Shown: in pieces, positions 9,245 through 11,300 of the stretch
Position numbering within the stretch: the stretch's first letter is position 1
How the letters are laid out: each line of letters opens with the position of its first letter
NCBI GenBank assembly: GCA_944362705.1
Contig: CALVTO010000001.1
Coordinates: forward strand, 147,623-211,622
DNA from: an uncultured Clostridia bacterium
Lineage (GTDB): Bacteria > Bacillota > Clostridia > Christensenellales > UBA1242
DNA: 64,000 nucleotides
Direction of reading: 5' to 3'
Translations under genes and position numbers: made by a program
Notes under the pieces: model-generated
The model's input: only the letters and a program-made list of their open reading frames with translations
What the model was told of the DNA's origin: nothing
The model's database searches: none

Positions 9245-9273
9245 TTGCATATTCTATAAAAAAGGCGTATATA
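9245..9273 (+). promoter_or_regulatory. Candidate upstream 16S promoter P1
   Basis: TTGCAT (9245-9250), 17 nt, TATATA (9268-9273). Confidence 0.45.
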
Positions 9274-9368
9274 CTATGGGTATGGCGTATAGAAAATACG
9301 CGGTTTTTGGCGCCTTTTTTAGAAATTTTAAAAACTTAAAAATTTTTTAAATTTTTTTGAAAAAAGTG

Positions 9369-9397
9369 TTGACACCCATATGTATATATGCTATTAT
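9369..9397 (+). promoter_or_regulatory. 16S promoter P2 (consensus -35, extended -10), preceded by an A/T-rich UP-like tract
   Basis: TTGACA (9369-9374), 17 nt ending in TGc, TATTAT (9392-9397). A stem-loop at 9404-9433 follows immediately. Confidence 0.7.
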
Positions 9398-9436
9398 ATG
9401 TTCGTTGCTCGCGCCAATAAGGGTGCTAGCAACAAC

Positions 9437-9452
9437 CGTTCCTTGAAAACTT
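9437..9452 (+). promoter_or_regulatory. boxA-like antitermination element in the 16S leader
   Basis: cgttccttgaaaactt resembles the Bacillus rrn leader boxA TGTTCTTTGAAAACT (from memory). It is preceded by a boxB-like hairpin. Confidence 0.45.
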
Positions 9453-9462
9453 AATATTTGAT
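9439..9462 (+). other. 5' strand of the 16S processing stem
   Basis: ttccttgaaaacttaatatttgat pairs with 11242-11262 (14 bp + 6 bp around a small internal loop). Confidence 0.75.
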
Positions 9463-9581
9463 TGATAGGTTTTTTTTTACAAGATTGTAAAATTAGTGTC
9501 CTTGAAATTTTTTTAAATTAACAAGTACTAAACAAACTTTACATACGCTAGTATAAAAGTTGGTTCTAGTTAGAATTTTTT

Positions 9582-11105
9582 AAACTTAAGAGTTTGATTC
9601 TGGCTCAGGACGAACGCTGGCGGCGTGCTTAACACATGCAAGTCGAACGGAGTTTACGAAAGCTTGCTTTTGTAAACTTAGTGGCGGACTGGTGAGTAAC
9701 GCGTGAGCAACCTGCCCTATACACTGGGATAACAGTTAGAAATGACTGCTAATACCGGATATGACTAAGAGTCGCATGGCTCAATAGTGAAAGGGTTTAC
9801 TGGTATAGGATGGGCTCGCGTACCATTAGCTTGTTGGTAGTGTAACGGACTACCAAGGCGACGATGGTTAGCCGACCTGAGAGGGTGATCGGCCACACTG
9901 GGACTGAGATACGGCCCAGACTCCTACGGGAGGCAGCAGTGGGGAATATTGGGCAATGGAGGAAACTCTGACCCAGCAACGCCGCGTGAAGGATGAAGGT
10001 TCTCGGATTGTAAACTTCTGTTCTAAGGGACGAATAAAATGACGGTACCTTAGGAGAAAGCCCCGGCAAACTACGTGCCAGCAGCCGCGGTGATACGTAG
10101 GGGGCAAGCGTTGTCCGGAATTACTGGGCGTAAAGGGAGTGTAGGCGGTTTCTTAAGTTAGATGTGAAAGCCCGGGGCTTAACTCCGGAATTGCATTTAA
10201 TACTGGGAAGCTTGAGTGCAGGAGAGGTAAGTGGAATTCCTAGTGTAGCGGTGAAATGCGTAGATATTAGGAGGAACATCAGTGGCGAAGGCGACTTACT
10301 GGACTGTAACTGACGCTGAGGCTCGAAAGCGTGGGGAGCAAACAGGATTAGATACCCTGGTAGTCCACGCCCTAAACGATGATTACTAGATGTGGGTGGT
10401 ATCGACTCCATCCGTATCGTAGCTAACGCGATAAGTAATCCGCCTGGGGAGTACGACCGCAAGGTTGAAACTTAAAGAAATTGACGGGGACCCGCACAAG
10501 CAGAGGAGCATGACGTTTAATTCGATGCTACGCGAAAAACCTTACCAAGACTTGACATACTATGAATACCTAAGAAATTAGAGTAGTATAGCAATATACA
10601 TAGATACAGATGGTGCATGGTTGTCGTCAGCTCGTGTCGTGAGATGTTCGGTTAAGTCCGGCAACGAGCGCAACCCCTATAACTAGTTGCCAATATTTAG
10701 TTAGGAACTCTAGTTAGACTGCCGTGGATAACACGGAGGAAGGTGGGGATGACGTCAAATCATCATGCCTCTTACGTCTTGGGCTACAACTGTGCTACAA
10801 TGGCTATTACAAAGAGTTGCAATACCGCAAGGTGGAGCCAATCTCAAAAAGATAGTCTCAGTTCGGATTGTGGGCTGCAACCCGCCCACATGAAGCTGGA
10901 TTTGCTAGTAATCCCGAATCAGCATGTCGGGGTGAATACGTTCCCGGGTCTTGTACACACCGCCTGTCACGCCATGGGAGTCGAGAGCACCCAAAACCGC
11001 TTGCTTAACCCGCAAGGGAGGGCGGCGTCTAAGGTGAGATTGATGACTGGGGTGAAGTCATAACAAGGTAGCCGTATCGGAAGGTGCGGCTGGATCACCT
11101 CCTTT
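9582..11105 (+). rRNA. rrs: 16S ribosomal RNA
   Basis: agagtttgattctggctcag at 9589. Conserved blocks are present throughout. The 3' end is ggatcacctccttt (anti-SD) at about 11105. Confidence 0.97.
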
Positions 11106-11241
11106 AAAGGAGTAGCAGATTGCTACTTTTGTCGACGTACAATGTTTTTCATTGTATGAAATTGTTTACCTTTTGGGTAAATGTTCTCTTGTATATACAG
11201 TAAACATATACAAGTTATGATAAAAGGATATAACACACTAC

Positions 11242-11262
11242 ATCAAATATTAAGTTAAGGAA
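11242..11262 (+). other. 3' strand of the 16S processing stem
   Basis: atcaaatattaagttaaggaa is complementary to 9439-9462. Confidence 0.75.
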
Positions 11263-11270
11263 TGAAGAAA

Positions 11271-11300
11271 AACGAAGTGTACCGACACTTCGTTTTTTTT
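11271..11300 (+). terminator. Rho-independent terminator directly after the 16S processing stem
   Basis: aacgaagtgt-accg-acacttcgtt (10-bp perfect stem) followed by T8. Confidence 0.85.

Follow-up and report, generated by a model that had tools for sequence, protein, structure and literature searches.

In Borrelia burgdorferi, the genes for 16S and 23S rRNA are on the same strand and are separated by a few kb that contain protein-coding DNA; the tRNA-Ala/Ile stays in the gap and the 23S-5S part is duplicated. This species is listed as unlinked by Brewer et al. (10.1101/705046), who classed rRNA genes as unlinked when over 1,500 bp separate the closest 16S-23S pair, or when the 1,500 bp that follow the 16S contain no 23S, and placed a genome in the class 'unlinked' when every rRNA copy is unlinked. 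In that work, 0% of the rRNA genes in human-gut long reads were unlinked, and unlinking was tied to the loss of RNase III (10.1101/705046). The trait is associated with a low rRNA copy number, a small A/T-rich genome and conservation within lineages (10.1101/705046, PMC7761764). In Helicobacter pylori, 16S and 23S-5S form separate units, both of which are matured by RNase III (PMC7761764).

The genome studied here (G000; 969,783 bp, about 0.97 Mb, 100% complete) belongs to a lineage of spore-forming Clostridia that are associated with the gut and whose genomes measure about 1 Mb. Judging from PMC12306168, the family is probably UBA1242 of the Christensenellales; rRNA genes are unmentioned in that paper, which describes UBA1242. 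On the + strand of the window (the whole 64-kb stretch of DNA that was analysed), Rfam placed the 16S at 9582-11105, the 23S at 14180-17100 and the 5S at 17344-17459, so that the 23S-5S part as a whole occupies 14180-17459. The gap from the end of the 16S to the start of the 23S is 3,074 bp and, as there is one 16S and one 23S, the genome falls within the 'unlinked' class. A preliminary description of the locus had found the organism otherwise similar to a typical sporulating Firmicute, a label that does not suit a 0.97-Mb genome with a single rRNA copy, though Spo0A is encoded. Other 16S or 23S loci in which the same layout might have been repeated do not exist in this genome.

Signals of the 16S unit

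The main promoter of the 16S, the sole genomic copy, was found by the promoter scan at 9369-9397 on the + strand, about 180 nt ahead of the gene. It has the form TTGACA-17-TATTAT with a TG extended -10 and agrees with the consensus at 11/12 positions, bearing out the promoter first proposed. An A/T-rich, UP-element-like tract was read from the sequence ahead of it (9315-9365, + strand), and a similar tract is also found upstream of the 23S P2 promoter and of the tRNA-Ala/Ile promoter. The second, upstream promoter of the preliminary description fared less well. This P1 promoter (TTGCAT ... TATACT, 9245-9275, + strand) was read from the sequence and is a poor consensus match, with a -35 at 9245 that agrees at 3/6 positions and downstream of which TATATA is found after 17 nt, or TATACT after 19 nt. 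Because the promoter scan did not include it in its list, we treat it as a possible weak promoter only.

Just past the start site is the expected boxB-like leader hairpin (9400-9436, + strand; -18.3 kcal/mol, z -3.7), followed by a boxA-like motif, GTTCCTTGAAAACTTAATA, which was read from the sequence at 9438-9456 on the + strand and overlaps the leader (5') arm of the stem around the 16S. Within the 16S leader, GTTCCTTGAAAAC is similar to the boxA of B. subtilis and is a candidate boxA. A core similar to AACTTAATA, with one or two variable bases, recurs in 16S leaders of relatives and is also found near the beginning of 23S leaders. Little weight can be given to a search for a shared leader motif, as its pattern was taken from the very two sites that were found.

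The leader arm at 9439-9462 and the trailer arm at 11242-11262 (both + strand) pair with each other to form a 21-bp stem of 6 bp, a 3-nt bulge and 15 perfect bp, which encloses the 16S alone. The cofold of the leader and trailer reached -26.6 kcal/mol, which gives a z of -8.8 relative to shuffled trailers, and the trailer was the best + strand partner of the leader arm in the window, the runner-up being at -21.6. The proposal of a processing stem around the 16S only is supported. The energies of whole-flank duplexes were uninformative, since true and cross-paired sets of leaders and trailers were not separable in this A/T-rich DNA, and the core helices and the window-wide partner scan were therefore used instead. 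Cross-pairing of the A/T-rich flanks, as a control, gave background helices of 9-14 bp. A leader-trailer helix was present in most of the 13 genomes (G000 and 12 relatives) with a full-length 16S; the helices were 12-26 bp long and at matching positions, with outer parts that differed in sequence. The helices of 12-13 bp in G114, G050 and G013 are not significant alone because of this background. With its long enclosing helix and an RNase III encoded in the genome (191 bits against a cut-off of 166), the 16S has a pre-rRNA stem of the RNase III type, at which cleavage is predicted.

A strong terminator had also been predicted after the 16S, and it is present on the + strand. Its core at 11271-11300 reads AACGAAGTGT-ACCG-ACACTTCGTT, followed by T8; RNAfold lengthened the stem to 16 bp from 11265, and the resulting intrinsic terminator (11265-11300) folds at -18.5 kcal/mol (z -5.2).

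The gap, the 23S-5S unit and the tRNA pair

A second terminator in the gap, at 11384-11432, is palindromic and bidirectional; it has 23-bp perfect arms (-33.4 kcal/mol) and would both end the convergent GNAT-like gene and back up the 16S terminator. The three genes that follow are all on the - strand: a gene of 243 aa at 11419-12150 with a weak match to GNAT acetyltransferases (PF00583, E 0.0034, below the family cut-off), an ORF at 12374-12619 that codes for a small membrane protein no longer than 81 aa, and an ORF at 12674-13576 (ORF3) that codes for an orphan protein of about 300 aa, basic at its C-terminus, and is oriented divergently to the 23S promoters. Searches of Pfam, NCBIfam and PDB gave no match to ORF3; homologues are located at the same place upstream of the 23S in G114, G024 and G089. 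The absence of a tRNA after the 16S was confirmed by ARAGORN, which found none in the whole 64-kb window.

The 23S-5S unit is preceded on the + strand by two near-consensus promoters at 13613-13641 and 13725-13753 (together 13613-13753), each with 11/12 positions. By complementarity, the 5' arm of a processing stem at 13922-13946 (+ strand) pairs with 17211-17235; this stem of 25 nt is 96% complementary (-44.3 kcal/mol, z -10) and encloses the 23S only. The unit ends with a terminator at 17466-17487 on the + strand (-13.8 kcal/mol, z -5.1). The 16S and 23S-5S units are probably co-regulated through their common design. The only Ala(TGC)-Ile(GAT) pair of the genome is alone on another contig (C3:44964-45159), with its own TTGACA-17-TATGAT promoter and a hairpin-T7 terminator, and G114, G098 and G024 likewise have the pair at a distance from their rRNA genes.

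In about 19 genomes of the family, from some 10 genera and including G000, a terminator-like hairpin was observed within the 23S leader. The shared layout has a small conserved helix, CCA.x.GTATW-loop-WATAC.CTC.TGG (13808-13837 in G000), directly 3' of which there is a long hairpin with co-varying arms (13837-13893) and then 6-9 T's (13895-13902), with the 5' arm of the 23S stem about 20 nt on. A comparable element was found in no 16S leader. Separate folds of the individual sequences showed the long hairpin; RNAalifold, run on a MAFFT alignment of the 23S leaders in which the 3' arm was not in register, recovered only the small (P1) helix. Rfam, searched with the 23S leader at a permissive threshold, returned chance hits only. 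A leader-peptide attenuator ahead of the 23S was rejected, as its 26-codon frame in G000 is not kept in G024, G089 and G114.

The TGG of the element has alternative partners, either the upstream CCA or the foot of the terminator stem, and the element could therefore be an attenuator or a checkpoint. With the break of the operon, the inherent 1:1 tie between the synthesis of 16S and that of 23S would have been lost, and we tentatively suggest, as a possibility that is still rather doubtful, that the element compensates for the split as a factor-dependent attenuator or antitermination checkpoint which tunes the 23S-5S output relative to 16S. With the conserved terminator of the 23S leader, the maintenance of rRNA stoichiometry after an operon break could be tested.

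Layout in related genomes and competing explanations

From the 16S side, genomes were scored when a full-length 16S lay inside a contig with at least 3 kb of downstream DNA, which left 13 (G000 and 12 relatives). None of these (0/13) had a 23S within 1.5 kb of the 16S and, seen from the 23S side, no 16S 3' end was found in the approximately 1.35-1.7 kb upstream of the 23S leader in any of 22 genomes (0/22). The preliminary description presented the split layout as an exception; within the family it is rather the rule (13/13 from the 16S side and 22/22 from the 23S side). The extent of the split varies. Same-strand gaps measure 2.1 kb in G114, 3.1 kb in G000 and 5.5 kb in G050, and about 6.6 kb in G059, where the 16S is cut at a contig end. 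The two genes share a contig at a distance of 142 kb in G098, are 123 kb apart in G020 (16S cut at a contig end) and are on different contigs in G024, G107 and G057, where both genes are contig-internal, and in others. A hairpin followed by a run of T6-8 was found 116-260 nt past the 16S in all 13 genomes, and also in G116, which has only 711 nt of DNA downstream of its 16S; the sequences of these hairpins are unrelated among genomes. In three sister-family genomes (G026, G028 and G033), the operons are linked and their spacers measure 298-531 bp; those of G026 and G028 carry tRNA-Ala(TGC) and tRNA-Ile(GAT). The box CATTGA(A/C)AACTGCATA before the 23S is common to the family and the outgroup spacers. 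Unlinking is thus conserved in this lineage, the three sister-family genomes being linked.

The 16S is, very probably, an independent transcription unit and one of three pieces of an ancestral 16S-tRNA(Ala)-tRNA(Ile)-23S-5S operon that broke up in this lineage of Clostridia with reduced genomes. This reading is based on the two terminators and three opposite-strand genes that fill the 3,074-bp gap, on the self-sufficiency of the 23S, with its two promoters (11/12) and its own 25-bp stem, and on a genome that encodes RNase III and NusB (107 bits, above the cut-off) and has only one 16S and one 23S. The self-contained, 'unlinked' 16S that was first proposed, with its own promoter, 16S-only stem and terminator, therefore appears sound as far as sequence can tell, and its layout recurs in relatives.

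The signals and their conservation are direct observations, from which we infer how they would be used in the cell. RNA polymerase would start at the extended -10 promoter at 9369-9397, aided by the A/T-rich upstream tract. The leader would then fold its hairpin and expose the boxA-like motif, onto which NusB/NusE would presumably be loaded. After synthesis of the 16S, the trailer at 11242-11262 and the leader at 9439-9462 would close the 21-bp stem around the 16S alone, which RNase III may cut, freeing the pre-16S. Transcription would stop 9 nt past the stem at the hairpin-T8, with the bidirectional terminator 90 nt further on as a back-up, and the 23S-5S would be transcribed separately from its own two promoters, with the same design as the 16S unit.

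A boxA-loaded antitermination complex could carry some polymerases past the 16S terminator. If most 23S came from such boxA-modified polymerases reading on through a leaky terminator, in a long precursor from the 16S to the 23S, the operon would be stretched rather than split. The ancestral order on the same strand across 3.1 kb would fit this, as would its retention with gaps of 2.1-6.6 kb in G114, G050 and G059, and the presence of a boxA-like motif and NusB. We nevertheless consider it unlikely, as polymerases would have to pass two intrinsic terminators in series and read three genes with their own signals in antisense, in order to reach a 23S that has two promoters of its own with 11/12 positions each. 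The stems also close around the 16S and the 23S separately, and the close relatives G024 and G089 have a homologous 23S unit with ORF3 while their 16S is on another contig.

Breaks and joins in metagenome assemblies classically fall in rRNA genes, and those of many relatives are cut at contig ends; a chimeric join in or next to these conserved genes of a metagenome-assembled genome could therefore produce a false gap. However, the two flanks of the 16S show complementarity, as do those of the 23S, which would not result from a join inside either gene. With a single copy of each rRNA in the genome, with the order of 16S, opposite-strand ORF3 and 23S recurring in G114 (an independent assembly from another genus), and with ORF3 again beside the 23S in G024 and G089, such an artefact is extremely improbable. 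A recent, strain-specific insertion, for example of a mobile element, into an otherwise normal 16S-23S spacer might be suspected from the three genes of unclear function in the gap, one of them an orphan. It is a very unlikely origin of the gap, since no transposase, integrase or repeat flanks the gap segment, the split is family-wide with each relative having its own post-16S terminator, and the tRNAs of the spacer are now in a unit of their own.

Comparison with known systems

Unlinked rRNA genes as such are not new, and it is the lineage that is new for the trait. So far, they have been associated mainly with intracellular symbionts and with soil taxa that grow slowly; here they are found in a family of gut spore-forming Clostridia. 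Organisms of this type will be missed by long-amplicon 16S-ITS-23S profiling. A comparative series is also on hand, from linked sister families through gaps of 2-7 kb to full dispersal.

In comparison with the canonical Firmicute rrn operon (Bacillus subtilis, G026, G028), the promoter type, leader hairpin, candidate boxA, separate 16S and 23S stems and 23S-5S linkage are alike. G000 differs from it in the post-16S terminators, the opposite-strand genes in the gap and the spacer tRNAs located elsewhere, and a common 16S-23S transcript is not expected. A canonical operon would have a spacer of some hundreds of bp, free of terminators and of opposite-strand genes and frequently with tRNA-Ala/Ile. 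With a 3,074-bp gap that holds two terminators and three minus-strand genes, and with a window free of tRNA genes, the locus is not a canonical operon.

The 2-7 kb gaps of G000, G114, G050 and G059 are similar to that of Borrelia. Unlike in Borrelia, the tRNA pair of G000 is no longer at the locus and makes up a unit by itself.

As in H. pylori, there would be two independent precursors, each with its own leader-trailer stem and presumably cut by RNase III. H. pylori belongs to another phylum, and it has widely separated units and the involvement of an antisense RNA, whereas nothing comparable was seen in G000.

Like the unlinked genomes of Brewer et al., G000 is small and A/T-rich, with single-copy rRNA genes and a lineage-conserved trait. 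Unlike those of the survey, its lineage is gut-associated (the relative G024 is a Hadza gut genome), and G000 keeps RNase III and clear stems around each rRNA. An unlinked family in which RNase III and the per-gene stems are kept goes against the reported link between unlinking and the loss of RNase III.

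A predicted separate 16S rRNA unit

The complete 16S rRNA gene (9582-11105, + strand) and the 23S rRNA gene (14180-17100, +), both located with Rfam, are 3,074 bp apart, and three minus-strand ORFs lie between them. These are an ORF with a weak profile match to GNAT acetyltransferases (11419-12150), one for a small membrane protein (12374-12619) and ORF3 (12674-13576), whose orphan product is about 300 aa long, is rich in lysine and arginine over its C-terminal third, and gave no match in Pfam, NCBIfam or PDB. As the preliminary description had noted, no tRNA lies beside 16S, and ARAGORN found none in the entire 64-kb window.

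The same description had surrounded 16S with a promoter, a leader hairpin, a processing stem and a strong terminator. At 9369-9397 the promoter scan listed TTGACA-17-TATTAT, extended by TG (11/12 consensus positions), directly followed after the start site by a hairpin at 9400-9436 (-18.3 kcal/mol, z -3.7). The leader at 9439-9462 pairs with the trailer at 11242-11262 through 6 bp, a GAA bulge and 15 perfect bp; the cofold energy is -26.6 kcal/mol (z -8.8 relative to shuffles of the trailer arm), and the trailer was the best partner of the leader arm when this was slid along the full + strand of the window (runner-up -21.6). Nine nucleotides past the trailer arm, a hairpin with T8 (11265-11300; -18.5 kcal/mol, z -5.2) forms the predicted terminator. 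A possible second promoter proposed at 9245 (TTGCAT) failed the scan, its -35 hexamer matching only 3/6 positions by eye, and stays a bare candidate. With that exception the signals are present where they were described, and the observation is therefore confirmed.

About 90 nt beyond the 16S terminator is a second one (11384-11432), a perfect 23-bp palindrome of -33.4 kcal/mol with T-rich tails on both strands, which is predicted to end the convergent GNAT-like gene and would halt read-through from 16S too.

The predicted 23S-5S and tRNA units

Two promoters, at 13613-13641 and 13725-13753 (the latter termed P2), precede 23S, each with 11/12 consensus positions and each followed by a hairpin. 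The leader at 13922-13946 pairs with 17211-17235, 111 nt past the 23S 3' end, by 25-nt arms that are 96% complementary (-44.3 kcal/mol, z -10; best partner within the window), and a terminator at 17466-17487 (+; scan and folding) follows the 5S gene (17344-17459, +; Rfam). Judged by its own predicted promoters, stem and terminator, the 23S-5S unit is self-standing. The 23S-5S spacer is unusually long (243 nt) and contains a perfect TTGACA-17-TATAAT at 17268-17296 (+), 47 nt upstream of 5S; there are 14 such perfect sites genome-wide vs <1 expected from our own base-composition estimate, and the 70-124 nt spacers of three relatives (G024, G050 and G107) hold no perfect promoter. The perfect site before 5S suggests that 5S may have a promoter of its own besides those of 23S. 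Directly past the 5S terminator, a C-terminal tyrS fragment (17520-17855, +) matches residues 293-405 of tyrosyl-tRNA synthetase (S4-like domain); an intact tyrS is located at C1:74516-75706, and the fragment could be what is left of a second gene copy's 3' end or a small protein in its own right.

The 23S leader is 430 nt long. About 85-150 nt past the P2 start it contains a long hairpin at 13837-13893, which folds at -23.9 kcal/mol and has TTTTTATT behind it. The candidate element as a whole (13808-13902, +) consists of a small conserved helix, CCA.x.GTATT...AATAC.CTC.TGG, the long hairpin and the TTTTTATT run, and ends about 20 nt upstream of the 5' arm of the 23S stem. Across about 10 genera, 19 genomes of the family share the hairpin and T-run layout (-11.5 to -26.2 kcal/mol, z -2.1 to -6.0), with T6-T9 after every hairpin. 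Its stems co-vary, with at least seven distinct arm sequences: GGUAAGU/ACUUACC, GGAUAAGU/GCUUAUCC, CUCUGGAUGUAAA/UUUAUGUCUGGAG, GGCGAGUUG/CAACUUGCU, UAGUAAGUU/AACUUACUA, UGGAUAG/CUAUCCA and UGGUGAGUU/AACUUACCA. The CCA/TGG pairs of the small helix likewise co-vary, to CTA/TAG in two genomes, and the TGG doubles as the foot of the terminator stem. The element occurs once in the genome, had no match in Rfam, and was not found in 16S leaders, in the short-leader relatives G008, G193 and G107, or in outgroup 16S-23S spacers. A leader-peptide reading was discarded, as the reading frame is not conserved. We speculate that the element may be an attenuator or a Nus-dependent/antitermination checkpoint on 23S synthesis.

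The only tRNA-Ala(TGC)-tRNA-Ile(GAT) pair of the genome stands alone at C3:44964-45159, with an A/T tract and TTGACA-17-TATGAT plus TG extension upstream and a hairpin-T7 terminator downstream; in G114, G098 and G024, too, the pair is apart from 16S and 23S alike. From these predicted signals, the operon is split three ways, into 16S, tRNA-Ala/Ile and 23S-5S, and the promoter design common to all three units could plausibly let them be regulated together although transcribed apart. In this region (C3:44900-45500, outside the window), the tRNA-Ile 3' end, the terminator and a G+C-rich stretch after it recur as a repeat about 260 nt downstream, which looks like a duplication or an insertion scar at tRNA-Ile.

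Layout among relatives and its origin

In thirteen genomes, our own and 12 family relatives, 16S is full-length and internal to its contig, with 3 kb or more of sequence downstream, and 23S was within 1.5 kb of 16S in none of them (0/13). The two genes are on the same strand 2.1 kb apart in G114 and 5.5 kb apart in G050, on opposite strands of one contig 142 kb apart in G098, and on different contigs in G024, G107 and G057 (both genes internal) and in G089, G013, G016, G065 and G008; the G062 assembly has no 23S, and the 3.3 kb past its 16S holds ORFs only. Counted apart, since their 16S is cut by a contig end, are G059 (same strand, about 6.6 kb between the genes) and G020 (123 kb apart on one contig). 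From the other side, 22 genomes were judged by the 1.35-1.7 kb that precede the conserved 23S-leader box, and none had a 16S 3' end there (0/22). No family member that could be judged has a linked operon.

All 13 genomes, and also G116, carry a G+C-rich hairpin with T6-T8 at 116-260 nt past the 16S 3' end, and the sequences of these hairpins are mutually unrelated. Leader-trailer helices are found at corresponding sites, with the leader arm at about -100 to -180 and the trailer just upstream of the terminator; they are longest in G089 and G024 (24-26 bp), followed by G065 and G107 (16-18 bp), G016 and our genome (15 bp) and finally G114, G050 and G013 (12-13 bp). Because cross-pair controls gave chance helices of 9-14 bp in such A/T-rich flanks, a helix carries weight by itself only if it is longer than that. 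The inner leader arm has a semi-conserved AACTTAATA-like core, which we take to be boxA-like, while the outer part varies jointly with its partner.

Genomes of sister families have linked operons: three in G028 (spacers of 489 bp), three in G033 (298, 298 and 531 bp) and one in G026 (494 bp), with tRNA-Ala(TGC) and tRNA-Ile(GAT) in the spacers of G026 and G028. G036, whose genome is 1.4 Mb, represents another family within the order. There, a terminator directly follows 16S with no 23S behind it, and therefore the split may reach beyond the family. Past that 16S terminator (locus L037, G036:C4, about 1770-2060) come A/T-rich repeats in an array, each about 30-40 nt long (TAAGGAAGATTAATTATAA...).

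A mis-join at the rRNA genes during assembly could in principle produce such a layout. However, each rRNA gene has flanks that can pair with one another, the 16S-ORF3-23S order is seen again in an independently assembled genome from another genus, and with a single rRNA copy there is no second one to mis-join, so that an artefact is extremely improbable. Insertion of a mobile element into the spacer is also very unlikely, as neither a transposase nor flanking repeats are present at the locus.

A stepwise separation is what we favour. In the 16S tree our genome groups with G114, G089 and G024 (support 100/99), and exactly these four have an ORF3 homologue divergent upstream of 23S, those of the three relatives being 20-30% identical to ORF3. 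The 16S gene is just past ORF3 in our genome and G114, and on another contig in G024 and G089. It is likely that genes were inserted into the 16S-23S spacer, that a terminator and promoters were then gained, and that later rearrangements separated the rRNA genes. We claim no family-wide order of events because deep branches of the tree have support of 14/69.

Genome context and known unlinked rRNA genes

The organism had been said to look otherwise like a typical sporulating Firmicute. Its genome (969,783 bp in three contigs, scored 100% complete) has one 16S and one 23S and encodes Spo0A (259 bits, above cut-off), so that we regard it as an atypical Firmicute, a spore-former whose genome is strongly reduced. 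RNase III (191 bits, above cut-off) and NusB are also encoded. G024, which shares its 16S clade, is catalogued as an uncultured Clostridia genome recovered from Hadza gut. The lineage is probably the family UBA1242 (Christensenellales): its Clostridia affiliation, size of about 1 Mb, sporulation genes, source in the gut and wealth of genera fit the description of that family in PMC12306168, a text that makes no mention of rRNA or operons.

Brewer et al. (10.1101/705046) define unlinked rRNA genes as 16S and 23S more than 1,500 bp apart, and at 3,074 bp the only copies of this genome belong to that class. Its small, A/T-rich, low-copy genome agrees with the associations reported there and in PMC7761764. 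However, unlinked genes were absent from the human-gut long reads of Brewer et al., who tied the trait to RNase III loss, whereas the present lineage is gut-associated and retains RNase III as well as strong stems around each gene. In mechanism, the separate 16S and 23S-5S units come closest to Helicobacter pylori, where RNase III matures a 16S and a 23S-5S precursor that are made as separate transcripts (summarised in PMC7761764). Unlinked rRNA genes are thus already known as a kind, to which this lineage adds.
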